DNA of 64,000 nt from contig JBGSPE010000011.1 of NCBI GenBank assembly GCA_041738755.1, forward strand, positions 6,658 through 70,657. The letters are read 5' to 3'. This stretch comes from Minisyncoccia bacterium. Lineage in GTDB: Bacteria; Patescibacteriota; Minisyncoccia; Phycocordibacterales; UBA918. A model generated the notes under the pieces. The model made no database searches and was not told the DNA's origin. It saw nothing but the letters and a program-made list of their open reading frames with translations. This document shows positions 3,812 to 40,650 of the stretch, piece after piece (positions within the stretch are counted from its first letter, which is position 1; every line of letters starts with the position of its first letter). The position numbers were made by a program, and so were the translations under genes.

Positions 3812-4522
3812 CCGTGAATTCCCGAGGTCTGACCTCGGGAATTCAGTACCAAACGAAATCCAATCTAACAATTCACTTTTTACATCAGTTGCTGTTGAAA
3901 AATACCTTGGAAAATGTTCTTGATTCAAGATCCTTGAACTTAAGTACTCATGGTTAATATAGGCCATTAAACTAGAATATGGATATAAACAAACGTCATT
4001 ATATATTTTTTTAGTCATATCAAAATATGTATCGTCTGATTCGTTAGATTTAAATAATTTGACTGGATTAAGATGTATATATGAAAAAAGATATTTTAGA
4101 TATTCATCTGAATCAGAGTGTTTTGCTTTAAAACGACTTTCAAACAAGCCTCCCGTTCTTTCATACTTTTTATTGAAGTACATCGAATACCCGGTCATTA
4201 ACTTACTCATAAATTTTGAAATACCCTGCTCTGCTAGTGGTGTGAGCAGCAAATGAAAATGGTTAGGCATCAAACAATACGCCCCAACCGCGACAAGATT
4301 TTCACCACGTTCGAATTCATAGATATTTTTGTGTGTCTTTTTAATATCTTTTATACTTACGGACTTTGTAGAGTTAGCAAGGTAAAGAAGACTTAGAAAA
4401 CGCTGATAGTCTTCTGGAGATTCGAAGATTATTCGCTTATCTGTACCTCGGTTGTAAACATGATAGAACTCCTGAGGTGCAAATTCGACGGTTCTTGTAA
4501 CCATACGGTTTAAGAATAACAT
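3812..4522 (-). CDS. REP-associated tyrosine transposase (RAYT; IS200-like Y1 transposase)
   Basis: Contains HVYNRG and the HuH motif YCLMPNHFHLL, and is about 230 aa, as expected for this family. The C-terminal tail of the ORF (EFPRSDLGNS) is a translation of the flanking REP palindrome, so the true stop may lie earlier. Confidence 0.75.
3815..3843. repeat. REP-like perfect palindrome GAATTCCCGAGGTCTGACCTCGGGAATTC
   Basis: Perfect inverted repeat immediately downstream of the RAYT gene. Related copies occur at 4528, 5005 and 5189. Confidence 0.8.
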
Positions 4523-5348: not shown

Positions 5349-7385
5349 TTAGTTAGCGTTGATGTTGATGAAGCTTGTTCGGAAATCTTGTGCTGGAGTT
5401 GGTGTGTATGTTTCATCATCAGCATCTCCTGCGATTTCGTCATCACTGAAGCCTACACCTGTGAGTGCTACTCGGTGTTGACCTGTAGTGTTGGTGTCTA
5501 CTGTTACAGTCAATGTGAATGTTTCAGTTTCTCCTTCTCGGACTGCGAAGAAATCAGATGATTCCTGGTCAGCTGTTGAAGAAAGTGTTCCTGAAACAGT
5601 TGTTGTTGCTCCGTTTGGACCTTCTACTGTGTAAGATACACCTGTAGTTGTAGCTCCGTTAGTAGCTCGTTCGAAGATGTAGAAGTCACCTTCTACAGCT
5701 GTTACTTCGAAGTCGATTGAGAATGAACCAGTTTGGTCATTGTCTCCAGTTGTGTCAGTTGTAAATTCAACAGCGTCAACTGGTACTACGATACCTTCAG
5801 CTACAAGAGTGTGTTCTTCACCGACAGCTGAACCATTGAGGTCACCACCGAGAATGTCATCAGCTCCTTCAGCGTCAGTTGAGTCTACGTCAGCGCTAGC
5901 TTCGATAGTTGTACCGTTTGAGTATCGATCAACATTGTTTGATGATTCTTGTGCTCGGAAGTCAACCATCACTACTACTGTTACTTCTTCGCCTTCATCA
6001 ATGACGATGTCACCATCGACGTCGAATTCGAACTTAGTAGTATTTGAGTTTGATACTGGTGAGTTTTCCGCATCGAAGATTTCACCATCGATTTCGATTG
6101 ATACATCATCGATAACCAATGATGAAGTTGTTGAGGTTTCAACATCTACGAATAGCGTATTGATTTCAACATCAGCATCTTCTGCTTCGAGAGTGTATTC
6201 AAGAACAGTTACATCATCTGTATCCTGATCTGTATCAACAATGATGTCTGTTGAATCTGGGTTGTTTGAACCAAGTGAGAAGGTAAGTTCTTCACCGTCT
6301 CCTTCAACTACAATGTCGAAGTCAACACCTTCTGAAGCTCCGATTTCATCAAATGAATCTTCGTCTTCAGATACACCATCAGCGTCGAAGTATCGTACGT
6401 CTGTTACTGCAATATTCCATGCTGCGTCAGTGTCGTCATCAACACCGTCAACACTTGACATGATTGTTGCTCCAACAAGTACTTCTACTTCTTCATCTTC
6501 TGGAAGGAAGAGTTCAAGACCTGAGAATCGGAATTCTCCGTCATCTTCTTCGAGGTATTCATCCTCGTCTGAAGCATCGAATTCTGCAATCATGTCGCCA
6601 TCAACCCAGAGGCTGATAGTTTCGAACGTTTCCCATGGGTCTTGTTCGTCAGTTGAAGTTGCAGCATCGAGTACGAAAGTGATTCGGTCGAGTTCGAGGT
6701 CACCATCTGTAGCTTCGATTGTAAGCTCAGCGATAACTTCGTCTTCAGAACCTTCTGGAATGTCAGTGTCTGGAGCGTCGTCGATTTCAAATGTATCGAG
6801 ATCACCTTCACCTGAAAGTTCCATCATTTCGTCATCCATGTCTTCGTCATCCATTTCTTCATCGTCCATTTCTTCGTCATCCATTTCTGCTGAAGTAACA
6901 CAAAGTGCGTTAGCCTTAGCTCGTGAACCTGAACCGAAGTATCCGGTTGGGTTTGAAAGGTTGATTGGTGTAAGGATTTCAGCTGCGTACTTTACTTGGA
7001 ACTTTGATACAGCTGCTGCTGTAGCTGGTCCGTAGTACATAGTTTCCATTCCCTTTGATCCTGCTCCTGAAGCTGACACTGTAGTGTCTGCATCTGAGTT
7101 AAGGAACTGTTGGAGCTTCATAACATCGTCACCAGTTGAACCTGATGAGAGGTCTCGTGTCCATGTGTATGGGCAGAATGAAGCTGAGCTGGTTGAACCT
7201 GCTCCAGCTGAAGCTGGTACGTCTGATTGTAGAGCAGCAACTTGCGCGAGCAAGTCGTTGATCATTGCTTGAAGTTCTTCAGTAGTTTGCGCTTGTGATA
7301 CAGGTGCAAATGCTGAGAACATCATAGCGATTGCAATCAAAGCTACTGTGAACTTTGATGCAACGTTTTCTGTGATATTCGTCAT
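5349..7385 (-). CDS. secreted, highly acidic, low-complexity surface protein with an N-terminal peptidoglycan-binding-like domain
   Basis: 678-aa ORF with an N-terminal signal/TM segment. It carries a PG_binding_1-like segment (DDVMKLQQFLNSD...YYGPATAAAVSKFQ), (MDDEE)n repeats and a long D/E/T/S-rich region. The antisense Ser-rich ORFs are artifacts. Confidence 0.55.
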   Translation of the reverse strand: MTNITENVASKFTVALIAIAMMFSAFAPVSQAQTTEELQAMINDLLAQVAALQSDVPASAGAGSTSSASFCPYTWTRDLSSGSTGDDVMKLQQFLNSDADTTVSASGAGSKGMETMYYGPATAAAVSKFQVKYAAEILTPINLSNPTGYFGSGSRAKANALCVTSAEMDDEEMDDEEMDDEDMDDEMMELSGEGDLDTFEIDDAPDTDIPEGSEDEVIAELTIEATDGDLELDRITFVLDAATSTDEQDPWETFETISLWVDGDMIAEFDASDEDEYLEEDDGEFRFSGLELFLPEDEEVEVLVGATIMSSVDGVDDDTDAAWNIAVTDVRYFDADGVSEDEDSFDEIGASEGVDFDIVVEGDGEELTFSLGSNNPDSTDIIVDTDQDTDDVTVLEYTLEAEDADVEINTLFVDVETSTTSSLVIDDVSIEIDGEIFDAENSPVSNSNTTKFEFDVDGDIVIDEGEEVTVVVMVDFRAQESSNNVDRYSNGTTIEASADVDSTDAEGADDILGGDLNGSAVGEEHTLVAEGIVVPVDAVEFTTDTTGDNDQTGSFSIDFEVTAVEGDFYIFERATNGATTTGVSYTVEGPNGATTTVSGTLSSTADQESSDFFAVREGETETFTLTVTVDTNTTGQHRVALTGVGFSDDEIAGDADDETYTPTPAQDFRTSFININAN

Positions 7386-31990: not shown

Positions 31991-32569
31991 CTACAAATGA
32001 CTGGTTGAAACCGCTAGAGCAATCAGTTTATCAAGAACAGGCTCCAAACTTGTATCATGAATGAGCGCGATAGTAGCAGGTGAAACATCTTTGATTTCAT
32101 TCGGCACCAAGACTGAGTCAACGTAGCCCAAATCAGTGAGGATTTTTACCTGTAGTGACTTTTCGACCATTCCTCGGTGTGTCAGTTCACCTGACAGTAT
32201 TTGTAGTGATTCATAAATAAAATCAAACAACTGAGGAGTCGGTTCTTCACCAGAAAAGAACCGTCGCAGGACTCGAAACATACTTACAATACTGCCTCGA
32301 CTAGCTTTGTCCGTAGCTAGCGTGTAGAAATTTGTTTCAGCTTCAACACTGCCAATTTTCCAACCACTTTTACCGCGGACCAAAGACACTCGTATGTATG
32401 AGAAGTCCTGCATCGCAAACCGCTGCTTGCTTCGTTCTTCACGAATACTGCGCGCATCAGCAAAAAGCATCCCCGCTTCCCGGGTAAAGAGTAAGTAGGA
32501 ACGGTCTGCAGTATTGCGATTAAACGTACCGCAGACGAGAGCGTGCGTAATGTACGTCTGGTACGACAT
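31991..32569 (-). CDS. recO: DNA repair protein RecO
   Basis: 192 aa with an N-terminal OB-fold pattern (YITHALVCGTFNRNTADRSYLLFTREAGM) and RecO-like length and architecture. The family assignment comes from motif resemblance only. Confidence 0.5.
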   Translation of the reverse strand: MSYQTYITHALVCGTFNRNTADRSYLLFTREAGMLFADARSIREERSKQRFAMQDFSYIRVSLVRGKSGWKIGSVEAETNFYTLATDKASRGSIVSMFRVLRRFFSGEEPTPQLFDFIYESLQILSGELTHRGMVEKSLQVKILTDLGYVDSVLVPNEIKDVSPATIALIHDTSLEPVLDKLIALAVSTSHL

Positions 32570-35500
32570 TAGACTTTTTTAATAGTAAAGATGAATTGCT
32601 CAGTATCGGTAGCGACTACTTCTCCGTCAGTGTCAGCGAAGCTAAGCTCGACCGCACCAACCGTCTTCGTAAGGAGAGATGCGAAGCTTTCAATGTTGGC
32701 CCGGCCAGCATCGGTCGCTTGCACCGTGAGGATAATCTGGTCCTGTGGGGCCAGACCTTCAGCCTTTCGTCTTCCCTGCACTGCTCGCATGAGTTCGCGT
32801 ACATTTCCTTCCGCAATAAGTTCTGGAGTAAGGGTGGTATCAATCATTACACCTTCTCCCACGATATAGTCTTTAGCGTTTAGTTCGTCGAGAATGATTG
32901 ATTGCATGGCGTCACTAATCTGAGGTCCAGTAACACTTGCAATTGGCTGTCGTACTTTAATATTTGATTTTGTTCGAGCTTCAAGTGCTGCAGTTACAAT
33001 TTCACGAGTAGCTACCATATCTACAATTATCTCCATTGGAACATCGGCAACTTCAGGCCATCGGCCGAGATGGACACTTTCTCCATCAGTCTCCTCTTTC
33101 ACCGCTTGGAAGAGGAACTCGGCATAAAATGGCATGGCCGGCGCCATCACGAGTGCTGTAGTGCGAAGGACATACCGAAGTGTTGAGAGTGCATGTGTCT
33201 TATCAGCTTCATTGTCTCCCTTAAAGCGGTCGCGAGAGCGACGCAAGTACCAAACCGAAAGATCATCAATAAACTCAGTCAGTGGTCTCGTCGCTTTATC
33301 AAACTCATAGTTTTCGTAACCAGCAGTTGTGGTATTCACGAGCTCTTGTAGTCGCGCCAAAATCCACCGATCCAGAACATGAGTTGAGTGGGCACTTCCC
33401 TTTGTACCATCAGCAAACATTTCATACATCTGGAGGACATTATGAAGTCGACCAATATTCTTCCGCTGCAACTCAAGTACTTCCTTACCTGAGAAATTAA
33501 GGTCTTCTCCCCGAACAACCGGTGAAGAGAGGAGGTACATTCTCATCGCATCAGCTCCAGCTTGATTAGCGAGTTCCATCGGGTCAGGATAGTTCTTGAG
33601 TGACTTACTCATCTTCTTCCCGTCCTCAGCCAACACGAGACCGTTTACTGCTACGTTTTTAAACGGACTCGTACCAAACAAGGCCACACCGAGTACCATC
33701 AGTGAGTAAAACCACCCTCGGGTTTGATCAAGTCCCTCAGCGATAAATTCAGCTGGGAATCTTGATTCCAAGAAACGTTCTTTATCTTTAAAGGGATAGT
33801 GATGTTGCCCATACGGCATTGAGCCACTTTCAAACCAACAATCAAATACATCTGGTACGCGCTCTAACTGTGTATCATTTTCAAACAAGATAACGTCATC
33901 GATATATGGTCGATGGAGGTCGAGCTCATACAAGTCATTGTGTGGTAGTGGTGTGAAGTTGAGCGTTCGCACCTCGGCGTTTTTGATATACGTCTTGAAG
34001 GGGTCAAGACATGCCTCTGTCGCAAAACCATTGACCACACACTCAAGCATGGTAAGCGGGTCACCGTGGGACACAATCAATATCTTTTTACCTTGATAGG
34101 TCTTCTCAATATCGTAGAGAAATTCCCCCATTCGCACCTTTACCTCATTGAGGGATTCAAGGCCAGCCACTGACTTCGTAAATTCTTCAAGTGGGTTTGC
34201 GTAATGTTGGATTTTTTCTTGATTTGGCTTGCCTTCGAGCTCACCCATCCCAGACTCTCGAATACGAGCATCTTCAATCAAGACAGAATCAGGTAAACCA
34301 AGCAACTCCGCAACCATGGCAGCAGTCGTTTTTGCTCGCGGCAACGGTGAATAAAAAATATAATCAATGTCAGACGGAAGACTTGCGACCGCATCTTTGA
34401 TTTGTTCCATTCCCTTTTCAGTCACCGGGTTGTCTTTAGTGGCGTCACCGTTGAGGAAGCCTTCAACATTTGAGCGGGCTTCAGCGTGACGCATCACGAG
34501 ATACTCATTACCACTTTTTGGTACATACGTCTTCAACTCATCGACTGAACCAATGACTACAAACGACTGTAACTCAGGATTTCGCCAGACCGGAAGTGGT
34601 GCCCCCCAGTATCGTTGCCGTGATACCGCCCAGTCTCGAGCGCCCTCAAGCCACTTTCCAAAGCGGTTGGTTCCGACGTGTTCCGGTACCCACTTCACTT
34701 CAGCATTAGCCTTTAGTAAGTCATCTTTGATTTTTGGTACGTTCACAAACCACGACGTAGTCGCGTAGTTTAGAAGTGGTGTCTCACACCGCCAACAGTG
34801 CGGGTAGCTGTGTGAAATATTTTCTTTCTTGAAAATCTTCCCGACTTTTTGCAGGGCTCGTAAGACTTCAATATCAGTGTCTTTGTGATCCACCCCAGCC
34901 CCTTCATCATCTTTTGGCTTTACCAACCGACCAGCAAACTCCGTTATAAATGACTTGAAGTGTCCTGCCTCATCAACATGGTGAAAGATTGGGACGCCGT
35001 GCTCTTGTGCGAGCTTCATGTCGTCGTCACCATACGCTGGCGCAATATGCACCGCACCAGTACCGTCCTCTCCTACTTCAACATAATCAGCGTGGCGAAT
35101 AACCCAACCATTCTTTGCTCCTTCAAGCTGTTGCTCCTCTATGTAGGTAAATGGTGGCTGATAGCGGGTACCGACCAGACTACTTCCCATCAACTCTTCA
35201 ACTACTTCGTGAGCAAGATCACCCAGTTGTGCAAGCCGTCCTTTAGCTAAGATGAAATACTCGTTCTCAATCTTTACCTTTACATACGTAATTTCGTTAT
35301 GGACCGCGGCAGCGATATTCCCTGGTAGTGTCCATGGGGTCGTGGTCCAAACCAAAAGGCTCGTATCAGTGACACTCCCTCCCTCATCCAACAGTGGCAG
35401 CTTCACGGTAACGGCAATATCTTTAATATCTTTGTAGCCTTGATTCACCTCAAAGTTTGAGAGGGTTGTTCCGCAACGTGGACACAGGTGCATACTTTTG

Positions 35501-36072
35501 AAACCTTCAAACACGAGACCTTTCTCATGGAGTGACTTAAATACCGACCACACACTTTCGGTGTAGCTACTGTCCATGGTCTTGTAGTCGTTCTGCATAT
35601 CAACAAACCGTCCCATCCGAGGGATAATTTCTCGCCAATCATCAGCGTAGCGTAAAACTGCACCGCGAGCACGTTCATTAAAATTCTTGACGCCATAGGC
35701 TTCAATATCACGCTTGGTTCCTAGTCCCAATTCTTTTTCAATCAGGTTCTCAAGCGGTAGTCCGTGACAATCCCACCCCCACTTCCGTTCCACTCGATAC
35801 CCATTCATGGTCTTGTACCGAGGAATCGCATCCTTCATCGTCCCGGCTAAAATATGCCCATAGTGAGGCAACCCGGTCGCAAACGGCGGACCATCATAAA
35901 AAACAAACTCGCCCTTGGGCTCCACTCCAGCTGGAGTAGCCACTGTTTTATTAAAAATATCGTTATCCTGCCAAAATTGTAGTATCGCCTCTTCACGCTG
36001 TGCGACATCGCTTTTGGGGACTTCGTTTAATACTTCTACCGTGTCGTTTTCACGACCTTTCATTAGACTCAT
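32569..36072 (-). CDS. ileS: isoleucyl-tRNA synthetase with an inserted histidine-phosphatase (PGAM-like) domain
   Basis: HIGH region PPFATGLPHYGHIL, WCISRQ-like WAVSRQRYWG, DLHRPYID, and KMSKS = KMSKSLKN. An extra domain of about 170-190 aa between PLPVW and DLHRPYID carries the RHAEARS, SPLPRAKTTA and IVSHGDPL motifs. Confidence 0.9.
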   Translation of the reverse strand: MSLMKGRENDTVEVLNEVPKSDVAQREEAILQFWQDNDIFNKTVATPAGVEPKGEFVFYDGPPFATGLPHYGHILAGTMKDAIPRYKTMNGYRVERKWGWDCHGLPLENLIEKELGLGTKRDIEAYGVKNFNERARGAVLRYADDWREIIPRMGRFVDMQNDYKTMDSSYTESVWSVFKSLHEKGLVFEGFKSMHLCPRCGTTLSNFEVNQGYKDIKDIAVTVKLPLLDEGGSVTDTSLLVWTTTPWTLPGNIAAAVHNEITYVKVKIENEYFILAKGRLAQLGDLAHEVVEELMGSSLVGTRYQPPFTYIEEQQLEGAKNGWVIRHADYVEVGEDGTGAVHIAPAYGDDDMKLAQEHGVPIFHHVDEAGHFKSFITEFAGRLVKPKDDEGAGVDHKDTDIEVLRALQKVGKIFKKENISHSYPHCWRCETPLLNYATTSWFVNVPKIKDDLLKANAEVKWVPEHVGTNRFGKWLEGARDWAVSRQRYWGAPLPVWRNPELQSFVVIGSVDELKTYVPKSGNEYLVMRHAEARSNVEGFLNGDATKDNPVTEKGMEQIKDAVASLPSDIDYIFYSPLPRAKTTAAMVAELLGLPDSVLIEDARIRESGMGELEGKPNQEKIQHYANPLEEFTKSVAGLESLNEVKVRMGEFLYDIEKTYQGKKILIVSHGDPLTMLECVVNGFATEACLDPFKTYIKNAEVRTLNFTPLPHNDLYELDLHRPYIDDVILFENDTQLERVPDVFDCWFESGSMPYGQHHYPFKDKERFLESRFPAEFIAEGLDQTRGWFYSLMVLGVALFGTSPFKNVAVNGLVLAEDGKKMSKSLKNYPDPMELANQAGADAMRMYLLSSPVVRGEDLNFSGKEVLELQRKNIGRLHNVLQMYEMFADGTKGSAHSTHVLDRWILARLQELVNTTTAGYENYEFDKATRPLTEFIDDLSVWYLRRSRDRFKGDNEADKTHALSTLRYVLRTTALVMAPAMPFYAEFLFQAVKEETDGESVHLGRWPEVADVPMEIIVDMVATREIVTAALEARTKSNIKVRQPIASVTGPQISDAMQSIILDELNAKDYIVGEGVMIDTTLTPELIAEGNVRELMRAVQGRRKAEGLAPQDQIILTVQATDAGRANIESFASLLTKTVGAVELSFADTDGEVVATDTEQFIFTIKKV

Positions 36073-36190
36073 ATGAAATTAATTATGTATATCAGACATG
36101 TATAAACGTGGCATATCAGGCCACGCTTTTGATAGTAACAAACTCTACCAAAAAGAAAAAGTCGCTGTTATGCGACTTTATTATCCTCTA

Positions 36191-36499
36191 TAAGGAGGGG
36201 TTCAGCTATTGAATGTCTTTCGAGCTTTCGGGAGCGGATTGGTGTCAGACCTCCCCCCTCGGTTAGGAGGGGGTTCAGCTATTGGTCTTGCGGAAGTGAA
36301 AGCAGGAAGAGGAGTGTCAGACCTCCCCCCTCGGTTAGGAGGGGGTTCAGCTATTAGATGTGCGCAAGCGCTGCTTGAAGCGGGAAGTGTCAGACCTCCC
36401 CCCTCGGTTAGGAGGGGGTTCAGCTATAACGTCGCGCCAGTGGTACTTGGTGGTGACAGTGTCAGACCTCCCCCCTCGGTTAGGAGGGGGTTCAGCTAT
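36191..36499 (-). CRISPR. CRISPR array: four 41-nt repeats (GTGTCAGACCTCCCCCCTCGGTTAGGAGGGGGTTCAGCTAT) plus one degenerate terminal repeat; spacers 31-32 nt
   Basis: Exact repeats at 36242-36282, 36314-36354, 36387-36427 and 36459-36499. A degenerate half-repeat lies at 36191-36209. The repeat has an internal 7-bp stem CCCCCTC/GAGGGGG. The minus-strand direction is inferred from the position of the degenerate (trailer) repeat and the cas genes. Confidence 0.85.
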
Positions 36500-36753
36500 A
36501 AGTGAGCGGGTAGGTTTTCCAAGGCTAGCTTGGCATCATCTGTGGGTGCTCATCCCCACAGCGGCGCTGACACGGCGCAAAAATAGAGACTTCACAACCC
36601 TCATTACAAGGGTTTCTGAATGCAATCCAGTTTCTCTACCGGTTGGAACCCTTTATGAGAAAAACATCACTGACTATAACTTTTTGCCAAGTGTTTTTCT
36701 CACTTATTTCAAAGACCAACTCAAGAGAAAATATACACTCCTATCTATTCTTG

Positions 36754-37527
36754 TCAAGTGCAACGAGAGTCGTGCCTCATTGGAAGTAGTGTGGGGGTAA
36801 ATACTTCTTTATGGTTCACCGCTTTTATAAATTTTGTAATCTGGAGATCCATATAATACTCGTAGGTATGACACTGCTTAAAATCACGAAGATAGTGCTT
36901 TTTCTGTAGCTGTTGATTGATTGCATGAAGTAGCTGAACTATATGCTCTTGGGTAAGTTTTTCGATTGGCTTTTTCTTCAAACGCAAAAATCGTAATACC
37001 TCAGTATCTACTACATCCGCTCGAAAAAGTTCAACGAGATCATATACTAGTGGCTTGCTCTTAGCTGTGCGTGGTTTATGCAATAATCCAATCGCGGCTG
37101 TTATGTCTCTTCGTTTAAGATTTTTACTAATCTTAACTGTAAGATGATGGTAGCCAATATCCAGCAGCTGATTTGTGACATCACTTCCTCGTGGTGCTCG
37201 ACTGGTAAACCTAGTCCAGGTTGGCAGTAGCGTACGGTAAACAGACCAAAATTGCTTAGCTGCTCTGGCTTCGTATAGTAAAATGTCTTGCATTGATGTA
37301 GGAGTACCTAGGATTGCAACTTCTCTTGGCATTTTATAGGCAGCCAACAGTGCTGAACGTTGGCGGATTTTGGTCTCAATGAGTACTACAGCACTTTTTA
37401 GTGCTAACGGTGATTGGGAGTATACAGACATCCGAGCTATCCACAAAGCATTTGTCATAGTATTAGCATAACAAAAAGGACGTTCGGTTGATACCGAACG
37501 TCCTTGAGCATTAAAGCAAAGTAGCAC
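36754..37527 (-). CDS. cas1: Cas1-like integrase lacking most of the N-terminal beta domain
   Basis: Cas1 catalytic-domain motifs are present: LYEARAAKQFW, NQLLDIGYHHL, and GLLHKPRTAKSKPLVYDLVELFRADVVD (GxLH...DLxExFR). Only about 30 aa precede the helical domain. The annotated start is a GTG, so the true start may be an internal Met (ARM-SVYS). Confidence 0.65.
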   Translation of the reverse strand: MLLCFNAQGRSVSTERPFCYANTMTNALWIARMSVYSQSPLALKSAVVLIETKIRQRSALLAAYKMPREVAILGTPTSMQDILLYEARAAKQFWSVYRTLLPTWTRFTSRAPRGSDVTNQLLDIGYHHLTVKISKNLKRRDITAAIGLLHKPRTAKSKPLVYDLVELFRADVVDTEVLRFLRLKKKPIEKLTQEHIVQLLHAINQQLQKKHYLRDFKQCHTYEYYMDLQITKFIKAVNHKEVFTPTLLPMRHDSRCT

Positions 37528-38878
37528 TCTCAGGCGCCCTGAGAAATTGATCCCGCAACGCTTTGGCTACAAAGATTTTTTTCTCATCCCCCAAGAGGGT
37601 ACTTGGTACTTCACCAGAAAAGGCCATACGTCTGACACTGCCTCCATGCTCTTTGGCTTTTTCTTTGAGCCAAGAGACCAGATACGCCAATGAACCCGTA
37701 TTTTGAGCCGCCCAGTTGGCACCAAGCGACCCACCACGTTCTGGCTTACTAGCATCAGCTAGCTTACCCGGCTTACTTCGGACAACCAGCTCAGTCACTA
37801 CAAAGTGAATTCCATGACCAGAAGCAACGGTCTTGGTACTACTTTGGAGACCGTACCCATGCTTACACTTGAATCGCCGTTCTGCTTTACTAAGCGGACG
37901 CTCCACTTCGGTGCGAAGCAGCCCATTTGCAACCACTCGTCGACGATTCATCTGCTGTTGTTCACCAAGGTGACGAAACAGAAACCGCCACGCAAGAGAA
38001 AGCTCTTCATGCTTTCCTGAACCTTTTGCTAACTTATCCTCAGCTACCAGTTGCCTGGTACGAACCGACAACGCTTCCAAGTGGGGCTTGAGCGAAATAT
38101 CTGAACGCCGAAATGGTATGACGACTTCACCATGCGGAGAAACCACCCCAATAGACGATGCTCCCAGTGCGACATACACTGCCGTATCAGGATCAAAGTC
38201 TTGAGTTATCGGCTGTTCAATTTCATACGCCAGCGATAAGGTAAGATGACCGGGTCGCTTAAGCCACGAATCACTGCGGGCAATAGTGAATTTCGCAAAC
38301 CGAAGAGCTGACTGGAGTTGTTCCATCTGGTAGTGGGCGACCTTAAAACAAAGTGTCCCACCAAAGGATCGCGGCGCCAATTGCACCATCCCACCCTTAA
38401 GGCGAAATGATGCTCCGAGAGCTCCCAGAATCACCTGAAAACGATCTTCAGAACATATCTTTGGCGATCGAGCATCAACATCACCCTTCTTCCGCAATTC
38501 GAAAAAGCTTTTGAAGGCTCCTTCGACCTGCCGAAACGTTTCGAGTACCCAATTAGTTGGTATTTTTGCTCGAAACAATCCAGCGCTCTCGTCCGCTGGA
38601 CGCTGTTCATCTTTGAACCGTGTATAGCAATCGAAGGCAGTGAGGAAACCCTTCACGTCCTTCTGTCTTTCATCATTGGACTTGGCTTCTTTGTACGCCG
38701 TGTACTGTTGGTACTGCCACTCCAGAGCGAGATTGTAATATTCTCGCAATCCATCGCTGATACGGTACAAAAGTGACTCTTGTTCTTTAGTAAGAGACAG
38801 TGGCCACTTCTGAGTGCGATGCATGATTGCCCGTTTTTGTTCGGCGGACTTCTGTTTAGCTGTTTGTGTTTGTGCCAT
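37511..38878 (-). CDS. TnpB/Cas12-like RuvC-fold protein (RuvC-I Asp replaced by Ala; Zn-finger/RuvC-III region absent)
   Basis: The N-terminus WPLSLTKEQESLLYRISDGLREYYNLALEW matches the TnpB/OrfB signature (RLyPT.eQ...L...fG..R.vyN). VYVALGASSIGVVSPHGEVV aligns to RuvC-I (vGiDlG...LS.G) but with A in place of D. VVTELVV is a RuvC-II Glu candidate, followed by W...LAYLVSWLKEKAKEHGG (w..l.YKa..G). No CxxC pairs are present. Strong SD AGGAGGTG upstream. Confidence 0.55.
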   Translation of the reverse strand: MAQTQTAKQKSAEQKRAIMHRTQKWPLSLTKEQESLLYRISDGLREYYNLALEWQYQQYTAYKEAKSNDERQKDVKGFLTAFDCYTRFKDEQRPADESAGLFRAKIPTNWVLETFRQVEGAFKSFFELRKKGDVDARSPKICSEDRFQVILGALGASFRLKGGMVQLAPRSFGGTLCFKVAHYQMEQLQSALRFAKFTIARSDSWLKRPGHLTLSLAYEIEQPITQDFDPDTAVYVALGASSIGVVSPHGEVVIPFRRSDISLKPHLEALSVRTRQLVAEDKLAKGSGKHEELSLAWRFLFRHLGEQQQMNRRRVVANGLLRTEVERPLSKAERRFKCKHGYGLQSSTKTVASGHGIHFVVTELVVRSKPGKLADASKPERGGSLGANWAAQNTGSLAYLVSWLKEKAKEHGGSVRRMAFSGEVPSTLLGDEKKIFVAKALRDQFLRAPESATLL

Positions 38879-38949
38879 TTGGCACCTCCTTTCTCAATGT
38901 CTATGTGCAAATTTCTAGTTAGACTTATATCACAAAAATATGTAATTGT

Positions 38950-40650
38950 CTACATCCGCTCTGGAGCCTTGATACCAAGCGTCCACAATCCATTTTTAAG
39001 TGTAGTGCCAACGAGCTTAGTGACAGCTGCCTTATATGGTGCGTACTTGTCATTACTATCAGCAATTTTCTCTACTGCATAGAAGCTATTGAACGCTCCA
39101 GCCAATTCTGTTAGATAGGTCGCCACTTTGTGTGGGGCACGTTCAGTCAACGCATTTTCAACTACACTTGGGAATCGTAATACGAGTTTTTCTACCTCGT
39201 ACGCGGTAGAAGGTATCGTGGTGAGATCTGGATATACCAAAGCGGCTGCAGCTTTTTCAAGTACTGAATTAATTCTTGCATACGTATACTGTAAGTACGG
39301 ACCTGAATCACCTTCAAATGAGAGGGCTTGGTCCTTATCAAAAATACTATCTTGCAAAATACTACCGCGAAGCGTCGAATACTTAATTGCAGCAATCGCC
39401 ACCGCTTCAGCCACTTCGTTGTCAACTACGGTTCCACTTTCTTTCATTTTTTCTTCAGCTGCTTGTTTCACTTCAGTGATAAAATCAATCGCCGAAATCA
39501 CATCTCCGGTGCGAGAGGACATTTTTCCGGTCGTTAACCGAACCATGCCGTGTCCAATATGTTCTGTTTTTGGAGCCAAGTCGGGGTACACTTCTTTCAT
39601 CGCACATAAAAGCACCTTGAAATATTCATTGATTTCATTGGCGGTTGAAATGATGGAGAGATCATATCCGCCAAACCGCTCAGCTTTTAGTTTTGCAAGA
39701 GCTAGTTCTTTGGCTTCGTAGGTAGGAAGTACTTCTTTATTTAGAAATACACGGGTATGAAGTCCGCGGGCTTCCCCATCAAAAATTCGAGCACCATCGC
39801 TTTCTGGAAAAATGTCTGGGTTATCAAGAACTAATGCTTTTCCATGTGGGCCTGCTTCACTTTCAAAAAAGTACTCATCAAACTGCGTATCAACCATTGC
39901 GTAGATGGTTTCAAAATATTGTAACGAGACGGTACGCCCTAAGTCATACAATTCATTAATAATTTCGTCTTCTCGGCTATAGACTTTTTTGTTGATTTCA
40001 CGAATAGCGAGAGCTGCTGACTCATCTGCTTTGTAGGTAGTGGCACCAAGCGCGTACGCTTGACCCAATGTTTTTGGAGTGATGGTATCGGAAGTGAGAC
40101 CAAGCTGTTGTATTCCCCACAGCGCGTGAGCTACGTGCAAGCCAACATCACCTTGGTAATTAACCCTGAAGGTTTCAGCCCCATTCATCATAAACAAGCG
40201 GGCAATACTCTCTCCTACCGCATTGGTAAATAGGTGTCCAATGTGAAATTCTTTAAACGGATTCGGATCAGTGTATTCAACCAAAACTTTTTTACCACTC
40301 CATGATTCATTGCTCCCGAATCGGGGGTGGGTCAATGACTCTTGTAATTGTTCTGTATGATACTCACGATTCAGAGTAAAATTAATGAACCCTGGACCAG
40401 CGACGATAACGCTTGCTAGTTGCGGTAACTGTTTTGCTTTCAGTAACTCTACAATTTCTTCAGCGACTACTTTTGGTGCCAGACCTCGCTTGCCGGCAAG
40501 AACCATCGCTACGTTTGTAAAATAGTCCGCTTCGGTATTTTTATCAGTCGGATAATCGACCACAAACGAAACTCCCTCGTGTCCTTGGGCAGCTAGAATT
40601 TCTTTTAACGCGAACGTTAGTGTCTCTTTCATTGCTCGTACAATACCCAA
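38950..40650 (-). CDS. argS: arginyl-tRNA synthetase
   Basis: HIGH motif FHIGHLFT, DALR anticodon-binding C-terminus, KMSKS-variant GKMSSRTG. 566 aa. Confidence 0.9.
   Translation of the reverse strand: MGIVRAMKETLTFALKEILAAQGHEGVSFVVDYPTDKNTEADYFTNVAMVLAGKRGLAPKVVAEEIVELLKAKQLPQLASVIVAGPGFINFTLNREYHTEQLQESLTHPRFGSNESWSGKKVLVEYTDPNPFKEFHIGHLFTNAVGESIARLFMMNGAETFRVNYQGDVGLHVAHALWGIQQLGLTSDTITPKTLGQAYALGATTYKADESAALAIREINKKVYSREDEIINELYDLGRTVSLQYFETIYAMVDTQFDEYFFESEAGPHGKALVLDNPDIFPESDGARIFDGEARGLHTRVFLNKEVLPTYEAKELALAKLKAERFGGYDLSIISTANEINEYFKVLLCAMKEVYPDLAPKTEHIGHGMVRLTTGKMSSRTGDVISAIDFITEVKQAAEEKMKESGTVVDNEVAEAVAIAAIKYSTLRGSILQDSIFDKDQALSFEGDSGPYLQYTYARINSVLEKAAAALVYPDLTTIPSTAYEVEKLVLRFPSVVENALTERAPHKVATYLTELAGAFNSFYAVEKIADSNDKYAPYKAAVTKLVGTTLKNGLWTLGIKAPERM

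Follow-up and report, generated by a model that had tools for sequence, protein, structure and literature searches.

Cas12f (Un1Cas12f1, AsCas12f) and the transposon-encoded protein ISDra2 TnpB are compact RNA-guided proteins of ~400 to 530 residues that carry a complete RuvC D-E-D triad and a zinc-finger (TNB) domain and cut DNA, each with a long structured guide scaffold: the trans-activating CRISPR RNA (tracrRNA) of Cas12f or the omega-RNA of TnpB. Here we describe a CRISPR locus from a Minisyncoccia bacterium (contig JBGSPE010000011.1) with an effector of similar size, for which these two proteins are the nearest structures, and with a long structured RNA beside its array; the effector family, Cas14e, differs from them in having neither the RuvC-I aspartate nor the zinc finger. 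The stretch analyzed, called the window, is 64 kb long; position 1 is its first letter, and all coordinates are in window numbering. We read the locus, with a confidence slightly on the favorable side of even, as a functional minimal type V locus of a Patescibacteria-specific Cas14e family whose effector binds DNA without cutting it.

Type V-C is the nearest described system by gene content, since it combines a noncutting effector with Cas1 and has no Cas2. Cas12c comprises ~1200 to 1300 residues and V-C spacers are 17 to 19 bp long, whereas spacers in the present family are 30 to 33 nt and the effector is about one third the size of Cas12c. Cas12c is reportedly accompanied by a Cas1-only "mini-integrase," a description ascribed to Wright et al. 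in 2019. Cas12c silences without cutting its target, as cited in PMC12669027. By predicted behavior the nearest system is Cas12m (type V-M), which supplies the mechanistic model adopted here: it is compact, often has the RuvC-I aspartate replaced while the other carboxylates are kept, and binds double-stranded DNA with a flanking protospacer-adjacent motif (PAM) without cleaving it (PMC11013384, PMC10442227), protecting against plasmids and phages. Variants with H/N-D-D triads bind DNA uncut and still protect cells (PMC11013384), and the noncanonical RuvC site of Cas12m2 binds the nontarget strand (PMC10442227). Cas12m differs from the present effector in its size (~600 residues), its REC2 domain, its zinc finger, and its use of CRISPR RNA (crRNA) alone, with no tracrRNA, and it is a weaker structural match (Foldseek E = 2e-5).

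Natural dead derivatives with a TnpB/Cas12f fold, namely, dCas12f-sigmaE, array-linked dCas12f, TldR, and Cas12k, carry RuvC mutations or C-terminal truncations and bind under RNA guidance (PMC13472631, PMC10705468). They are found in Bacteroidetes, Enterobacteria, or cyanobacteria, in association with sigma factors, fixed guides, or Tn7-like transposons, and have no adaptation gene, whereas the Cas14e family is restricted to Patescibacteria and has kept Cas1 and variable arrays. RuvC inactivation is recurrent in type V, and many TnpB-derived variants await description (PMC12669027); the Cas14e family fits the picture of repeated RuvC inactivation given in the 2025 classification.

The locus is arranged head to tail on the minus strand, in the order argS (38950-40650), a 455-codon open reading frame (ORF) for the effector (37511-38878), a Cas1-like ORF, the CRISPR array, and ileS (32569-36072). 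An earlier note on this DNA had placed the effector ORF, the Cas1-like ORF, and an array of 41-nt repeats with four spacers here, between argS and ileS and without cas2 or cas4; all of these elements are present on the minus strand, no cas2 or cas4 gene was found within the locus, both flanking genes are as described, and the effector and Cas1 motifs that were quoted do occur in the sequences.

Effector family, fold, and active site

The profile and sequence matches identify the effector as a member of the Cas14e family, type V-F by sequence profile. The PADLOC profile PDLC01225 (Cas12_x1, "CAS-V-F effector") matches with E = 3.3e-85, while the generic Cas12f model reaches only E = 0.005, and GenBank entry QBM02463.1, "CRISPR-associated protein Cas14e.1," shares 35% identity at 95% query coverage (E = 8e-58). 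The name Cas14e is said to come from Harrington et al. in 2018. The NCBIfam model guided_TnpB matches the N-terminal quarter only (E = 7.8e-5), and among Pfam models there was a weak match to HTH_OrfB_IS605 and none to OrfB_IS605 or OrfB_Zn_ribbon. The similarity to Cas14e.1 and the match to a V-F profile contradict the proposal that the locus falls outside described type V diversity; it is a divergent new member of a family for which a name and library profiles already exist, and not a new kind of system. The Cas14e family is not named in the 2025 classification or its supplements. The literature searched, in which the central papers of 2018 and 2020 were not included, held nothing on Cas14d to Cas14h, no functional work on Cas14e, and no description of the scaffold RNA, the module with Cas1 alone, the zinc-finger loss, or the family-wide odd active site.

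Among 5.8 billion proteins searched, 79 effector relatives of ~400 to 550 residues were found; when 1.84 billion cluster representatives were scanned exhaustively with HMMER, only 87 matched, so the family is rare. It comprises ~100 sequence clusters, the members of which keep intact ORFs at 30 to 56% identity, with invariant motifs that include AQNTG and GDxDAR. Where a host is named, it belongs to the Patescibacteria throughout (Kaiserbacteria, Saccharibacteria, Staskawiczbacteria, Moraniibacteria, Paceibacterota, Parcubacteria), with the exception of one contig binned as Bacteroidia. The window effector is a divergent member, with a 35-residue insertion (residues ~321 to 355) common to only two close relatives.

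An AlphaFold2 model of the effector, built on 32 homologues, had a mean predicted local distance difference test score (pLDDT) of 88 and a predicted template modeling score of 0.79. A Foldseek search with this model placed ISDra2 TnpB first (8h1j and 8exa; E = 4e-12 and 1e-11), followed by AsCas12f and dCas12f (9n9c) and, later, by Cas12k, Cas12p, Cas12n, Cas12m, and Cas12o. The Foldseek probability was 1.0 for TnpB, Cas12f, Cas12k, Cas12m, Cas12n, and Cas12p, and the best matches had template modeling scores, normalized by target length, of at most 0.62. The predicted structure has a TnpB/Cas12f fold, as is expected of a single-effector type V protein. Searches of PDB chains by sequence, using the whole protein, the family profile, or the C-terminal half, yielded one partial match, to a designed TnpB-like nuclease, and the C-terminal half matched no chain. 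The relationship to TnpB and Cas12f that had been proposed from short motifs is upheld by the PADLOC profile, the Cas14e.1 similarity, and the model.

In the family profile alignment, the effector sequence "vaLGAS" sits on "vDLGIK" of a TnpB-like nuclease in the PDB, which puts A237 (codon 38168-38170, minus strand) at the position of the RuvC-I catalytic aspartate. Among 97 core members of the family, residue 237 is alanine in 70, serine in 19, glycine in 3, threonine in 2, and histidine and lysine in 1 each, and is acidic in none. Core-family alignment identifies E363 (codon 37790-37792, minus strand) as a retained RuvC-II carboxylate, at the end of the modeled strand 358 to 362; this residue is aspartate in 57 core members and glutamate in 37 (94 of 97, or 97%). 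A second conserved carboxylate in the same alignment, D375 (codon 37754-37756, minus strand), lies in the lid loop "RSKxGKLAD" and occurs in 95 of the 97 core members (98%), against 6 of 23 members of a sister clade, which retains the RuvC-I aspartate. The segment following RuvC-II, RSKxGKLADxSKxERGGxLGxNWxAQNTG, is the most conserved stretch of the effector; around D375 it is modeled with low confidence (pLDDT ~50 to 60).

Toward the C terminus, the model has a strand (414 to 418), a 12-residue loop, and a helix (431 to 447), with no zinc-finger domain inserted; TnpB and Cas12f carry their zinc-finger/TNB domain where the effector has this loop. None of the 121 homologues has a CxxC motif within its C-terminal 150 residues. 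Alignment and model together place E432 (codon 37583-37585, minus strand) in the first turn of the C-terminal helix, at the would-be RuvC-III, where 56 core members have glutamate and 10 have aspartate. The D-E-D triad that characterizes type V is therefore incomplete at A237, and the zinc finger (TNB) that characterizes V-F is missing; the accepted subtypes V-K and V-M and some V-C systems also have no complete RuvC triad (PMC12669027). As to the active site, the earlier note was right in its reading of an aspartate-to-alanine change at RuvC-I and of a missing CxxC zinc finger. Its statement that RuvC-III is absent was only partly right, since the helix with the semiconserved E432 remains, and its term "nuclease-dead" agrees with the loss of the RuvC-I aspartate and the zinc finger but stays a prediction, with two nearby carboxylates strongly conserved.

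The sister clade consists of shorter proteins (~400 residues) in which the RuvC-I aspartate is kept (IDLGAGD), RuvC-II mostly has lysine, D375 is not a feature, and an aspartate after strand 5 is conserved. The core family and the sister clade thus both have noncanonical sites, with complementary patterns. We had considered the sister clade as an active ancestor of the core family and dropped the idea because of the lysine at RuvC-II. Examples are proteins P0077 to P0079 and P0126 to P0150 and loci L058 and L059, which have the same mini-Cas1, arrays, and scaffold loop. Lysine also occupies RuvC-II in the effector of locus L036, and RuvC chemistry would therefore be dispensable in that lineage.

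Mini-Cas1, leader RNA, and array

The second gene encodes a mini-Cas1 that, judged by its profile matches, consists of a complete catalytic domain and has no N-terminal beta domain. Pfam Cas_Cas1 matches over profile positions 80 to 255 of 283 (E = 6.8e-22) and TIGR00287 over positions 83 to 326 of 327 (E = 2e-24); since both matches begin at positions 80 to 83, the N-terminal beta domain is missing. Both the Cas1 identity and the N-terminal truncation suspected earlier are confirmed by these PF01867-type and TIGR00287 matches. The Cas1 relatives form ~100 clusters, 84 of them full length, at 217 to 266 residues. The catalytic residues E54, H118, D131, and E134 (numbering of the 225-residue form) are kept in all 84, and the catalytic glutamate lies 54 to 61 residues from the N terminus across the family. 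Set against a standard Cas1 integrase, mini-Cas1 has the helical catalytic domain with its metal site but neither the beta-sandwich domain nor a Cas2 partner.

The mechanically derived Cas1 ORF (36754-37527) starts at a GTG codon, and the database gene call is 225 residues long. A terminator scan found a strong 13-bp hairpin with a T run, terminator- or attenuator-like, at 37476-37505 (minus strand). It separates the stop codon of the effector gene from the start of cas1 and falls within the 5' extension of the GTG-started ORF. Because of this position, the true start of cas1 is probably the ATG at 37458, which gives a gene of 234 codons (36754-37458, minus strand). The hairpin may be an attenuator that holds cas1 expression low.

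A sigma-70-type promoter, TTGACA-16-TATATT (36730-36757, minus strand), agrees with the consensus at 11 of 12 positions and overlaps the stop codon of cas1. It is the best promoter match in the region, and many related loci have TTGAC(A) and TAnnnT boxes at the corresponding position. Among relatives the gap that separates cas1 from the array is conserved over nearly its whole length and contains a conserved structured RNA of ~220 nt (36500-36723, minus strand), the 5' end of which is predicted from the promoter, identified by profile search and covariation as a candidate tracrRNA or omega-RNA-like scaffold. After the promoter come an 11-bp stem (UGAGAAAAACA with UGUUUUUCUCA), three to four more hairpins, two conserved single-stranded motifs, GAUGA(A/U)GC and GAAAACC..GCUC, and the first repeat, which the second motif (GAAAACC..GCTC in the DNA) abuts in the window and likewise in related loci.

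We compared 58 related loci from genomes and metagenomes. An nhmmer profile of the leader RNA, built from ten leaders, gave 50 matches in 42 of the 58 loci, always directly upstream of an array and on its strand. Covariation was tested in an alignment of 25 nonredundant leaders, with 40 pairs in six helices, including a pseudoknot between loop and repeat. Pairing was observed in 95.3% of cells, compared with 78.4% after shuffling and 42 to 47% when partners were slid; 163 cells had changed on both sides, compared with 44 in the control, and the covariation score was 0.49, compared with 0.16. None of 500 shuffles reached the observed pairing, both-side changes, or covariation score.

The pseudoknot was proposed unprompted by RNAalifold, which paired a hairpin loop (mostly GUAGCA) with the last six nucleotides of the repeat. 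In the window the loop is GTGTCAG (36567-36573, minus strand), the complement of the last 7 nt of the repeat, CTGACAC. In this helix 100% of cells are paired, and compensatory changes are found in three of the six pairs: the loop and repeat end read GUGUCAG and CUGACAC in the window, GUGCCGU and ACGGCAC in locus L044, and GUAGCC and GGCUAC or GUAGCG and CGCUAC in others, while the sister-clade locus L058, with GUACCC and GGGUAC, is another independent case. The loop in the window and in L044 is unlike the 5' end of the repeat, so the signal is complementarity to the 3' end and not a leftover repeat copy. A search of Rfam over positions 35800-39200, with E values up to 1, returned no family, and a search for a classical long anti-repeat near the window array gave only chance-level 7- to 10-mers, the short covarying loop having emerged solely from the comparison of leaders; in comparison with Cas12f, the anti-repeat of the window locus is only 6 to 7 nt. 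The sequence comparison suggests that the leader RNA is a tracrRNA or an omega-RNA-like scaffold, the loop of which would pair with the guide-adjacent end of the repeat. The idea that the locus has an array instead of an omega-RNA is not supported, as the array is preceded by a conserved candidate scaffold RNA whose anti-repeat loop covaries with the repeat.

The array (36170-36499, minus strand) runs in the direction of the cas genes and has four identical 41-nt repeats (ATAGCTGAACCCCCTCCTAACCGAGGGGGGAGGTCTGACAC), at 36459-36499, 36387-36427, 36314-36354, and 36242-36282, with spacers of 31, 32, 31, and 32 nt and a fifth, terminal repeat (~36170-36209) that is degenerate in its 3' half. An intrinsic terminator with an 8-bp stem and a T run, found by the terminator scan, lies 3' of the array (36151-36179, also given as 36158-36179, minus strand), and equivalent hairpins lie 3' of the arrays in related loci. 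There is no second CRISPR array in the locus or elsewhere in the window. Spacers 1 and 2 of the window array (36355-36458) are identical at 17 of 31 positions. Among spacers of the related loci, 3 of 233 within-array pairs, from L039 (upstream array), L006, and L005, have an identical 5' prefix of 9 to 12 nt (TGCTGCATCAAA, GAACATAAC, ACAATCATC) and are then wholly divergent; of 5123 between-array pairs, not one has as many as 6 nt in common, and the chance expectation is ~0.001 pairs. The shared prefixes resemble places where a constant end joins flanks that vary.

Related loci and spacer targets

Across the 58 loci the order is effector, cas1, a gap of 230 to 290 nt, and a short array with a period of 70 to 73 nt. 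When all ORFs were compared with one another, the effector (58 loci) and cas1 (54 loci) were the only ones to recur; the next clusters were antisense shadow ORFs or local neighbors, and no cas2, cas4, or other partner recurred. The array adjoins the effector gene in the window, as it does in most of the related loci whose flanks are long enough to tell, and the neighbors are housekeeping genes that differ between genomes. The same layout is found in the sister-clade loci and in the Cas14e.1 locus (L001), which has the same effector, a 233-residue Cas1, the leader, and a short array with a 70-nt period. With the order of effector, mini-cas1, and array repeated in dozens of Patescibacteria loci, the triad is conserved and is no assembly error. 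The Cas14e.1 locus (L001/L002/L003, 5001-7520) lies inside a ribosomal protein operon, between rplB (L2) and rpsS (S19) and in the same direction.

The arrays hold 1 to 11 spacers, 122 different ones in all. Several loci (L044, L045, L004/L005, L009, L048, and L058) have a second leader and array, inverted, upstream of the effector. The two L044 arrays (573-1181 and 3813-4421) agree in every spacer; this points to a recent duplication, to gene conversion, or to a fold-back in the assembly. In L045 one spacer is common to both arrays. In L008/L031 (3500-5300) and L029 the effector, the scaffold RNA, and a mini array of one to three spacers are found with no cas1 nearby; these may be fixed-guide derivatives. 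L036 and L037 (4254-4910) are the same locus in two samples, with a cas1 reduced to a 68-residue C-terminal remnant; the array has three spacers in one sample and one in the other, and the leader-distal spacer is common to both. We considered this difference as proof of polarized acquisition and set it aside, given the state of cas1.

Spacer searches were nearly all negative. The window spacers had no match elsewhere in the 64-kb window with nine mismatches allowed, only 19-nt chance matches among GenBank phages, and no exact match of their 24-mers in IMG/VR. About 110 spacers from related loci had no match among GenBank phages, nor did four further 24-mers match IMG/VR exactly. Among the 122 related-locus spacers, one target was found. 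The leader-proximal, newest spacer of L046 matches at 32 of 32 positions (L046:1704-1735) an rve/rve_3 insertion sequence (IS) transposase gene on the same contig. The transposase gene is intact, encodes 305 residues, and lies ~850 nt upstream of the effector gene, which encodes serine at RuvC-I; the crRNA would complement the sense strand (mRNA) of the transposase gene, and the 5' flank of the protospacer on the nontarget strand reads ...CAAATGTCC. That a perfect self-target is tolerated fits an effector that does not cut.

A spacer resembling the T-arm and acceptor 3' end of a tRNA was seen in the upstream array of L009/L039 and in the downstream array of L045; the reverse complements contain ...GGCGGTTCGACCCCGCC... 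and ...GGGGTTCGATTCCCC..., and the two arrays are unrelated. Such spacers could correspond to attachment sites of integrative elements or to host tRNA genes.

Two further features of the window were noted. The ileS product, an isoleucyl-tRNA synthetase of 1167 residues, has a histidine-phosphatase domain (His_Phos_1, E = 1.5e-27) inside its class I catalytic domain, at residues 525 to 706 (window 33955-34500). A 15-nt tandem repeat with 4.1 copies (TTCGTCATCCATTTC) lies at 6828-6888 and has no relation to the CRISPR locus.

Proposed mechanism, alternatives, and implications

In the mechanism that we propose, one promoter would drive a single transcript that runs from the scaffold through the array to the terminator. 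The 455-residue effector would be loaded with the scaffold plus a repeat-spacer unit, and the complex would bind matching DNA without cutting it, blocking transcription or replication of IS elements, phages, and plasmids, as experiments have demonstrated for Cas12m and Cas12c. Rather than catalyze, E363 and D375 would bind a metal ion or retain the displaced strand of DNA, as in Cas12m2 (PMC10442227), and mini-Cas1 alone would insert spacers of 30 to 33 bp beside the leader. Silencing by DNA binding is the most likely activity of the effector given the absence of an acidic RuvC-I residue from the whole core family, the lack of CxxC in every homologue, the self-target in L046, and the precedents of Cas12m and Cas12c. 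The suggestion of a compact RNA-guided DNA-binding system, made in the earlier note, is in this way adopted as the best reading for an effector without RuvC-I aspartate and zinc finger.

Several points weigh against this reading. The carboxylates at 363 and 375 are kept more strictly than a simply dead site would need, and D375 is found exactly in the clade that lacks the RuvC-I aspartate, so that it could be a relocated catalytic residue; sequence alone does not discriminate between loss of catalysis and relocation of a carboxylate. The tolerance of the self-target in L046 could be due to a missing PAM, and the one protospacer yields neither a PAM nor target statistics. The anti-repeat is just 6 to 7 bp, and the scaffold would have to act in trans on the downstream repeats. 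The difference between L036 and L037 resembles polarized acquisition, but with cas1 a remnant it may reflect deletion.

These points lead to the rival that we regard as unlikely yet the most serious, that the effector is still an RNA-guided nuclease, with E363, D375, and E432 forming a rearranged metal site that cuts DNA or only processes precursor crRNA. The conservation at 363 and 375, the acidic residue that 66 of the 97 core members have at 432, and the gain of D375 where the RuvC-I aspartate was lost, with the complementary pattern in the sister clade, speak for such a site, and RuvC-dependent processing of precursor crRNA is known for Cas12c and Cas12j (reviewed in PMC10442227). The same alignments contain no acidic RuvC-I residue in 97 core members, a lysine at RuvC-II in L036, and a third of members in which E432 is not conserved; the D375 loop is modeled at low confidence, which leaves its placement relative to E363 uncertain. 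Moreover, L046 carries the system together with a perfectly matching self-target, and Cas12m does not cut despite having two of the three carboxylates (PMC11013384). It is less probable still, and in our view improbable, that the locus is chiefly a regulator of host genes, a repressor programmed by CRISPR and comparable to TldR or to the dCas12f found with arrays in Bacteroidetes (PMC10705468, PMC13472631). The very short arrays, the position of loci within housekeeping operons, the tRNA 3'-end-like spacers in two arrays, and loci such as L008, L029, and L036, where effector, scaffold, and mini array are kept with cas1 absent or a remnant, would suit a regulator. Cas1 is, however, present in 54 of the 58 loci and catalytically intact in most, no other gene is linked, spacers differ wholly between related loci (122 unique), the window spacers match nothing else in the window even at nine mismatches, and the sole identified target is the transposase gene of a mobile element.

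We consider it very improbable that the complex targets RNA or guides transposition in the manner of Cas12k, with no DNA silencing. Transposons have recruited nuclease-inactive type V effectors (PMC12669027, PMC10910872), and the L046 crRNA is complementary to the transposase mRNA, but a single protospacer makes the choice of strand uninformative. Cas12k transposons carry linked Tn7-like or Mu genes, whereas no transposase or TniQ/TnsC-like gene recurs near these loci, which share only effector and cas1 and are flanked by unrelated housekeeping genes in different genomes. Almost no weight can be given to a decaying remnant of a full V-F system, with truncated effector and truncated Cas1, or to an assembly artifact. 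Both proteins do lack parts found in canonical relatives, and decay had been suggested earlier, but all ~100 effector and ~100 Cas1 clusters, a set drawn from many different samples and assemblers, have the same "truncations"; reading frames are intact, motifs are invariant, and the gene order, promoter, scaffold RNA, and terminator are conserved.

Beyond the proposed locus with a DNA-binding effector, we also considered a broader claim, plausible but somewhat short of an even chance, that the Cas14d/e lineage of Patescibacteria is a type V subtype in its own right and, of complete adaptive CRISPR systems, the smallest. It would combine a silencing effector of ~410 to 455 residues that lacks zinc finger and RuvC-I aspartate, an omega-RNA-like scaffold, encoded in the leader, that forms a 6- to 7-bp loop-to-repeat pseudoknot with each crRNA, and a single-protein mini-Cas1, and would tolerate self-targets and domesticate mobile elements rather than destroy them, the tolerated self-targets being IS transposase genes and tRNA-linked elements.

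The theme of noncutting type V systems is already established, and the compact adaptive system and its RNA are of specialist interest. If the effector binds only, it would be a natural "dCas" of ~410 to 455 residues that still acquires spacers; at about a third of the size of dCas9 and below that of Cas12m, it would be a useful compact programmable DNA binder. The locus would also be an informative intermediate on the way from TnpB and omega-RNA to CRISPR, in which a leader-encoded scaffold touches the repeat by 6 to 7 bp. Adaptation would appear to need one truncated Cas1, and very small genomes would run adaptive immunity on two small genes.

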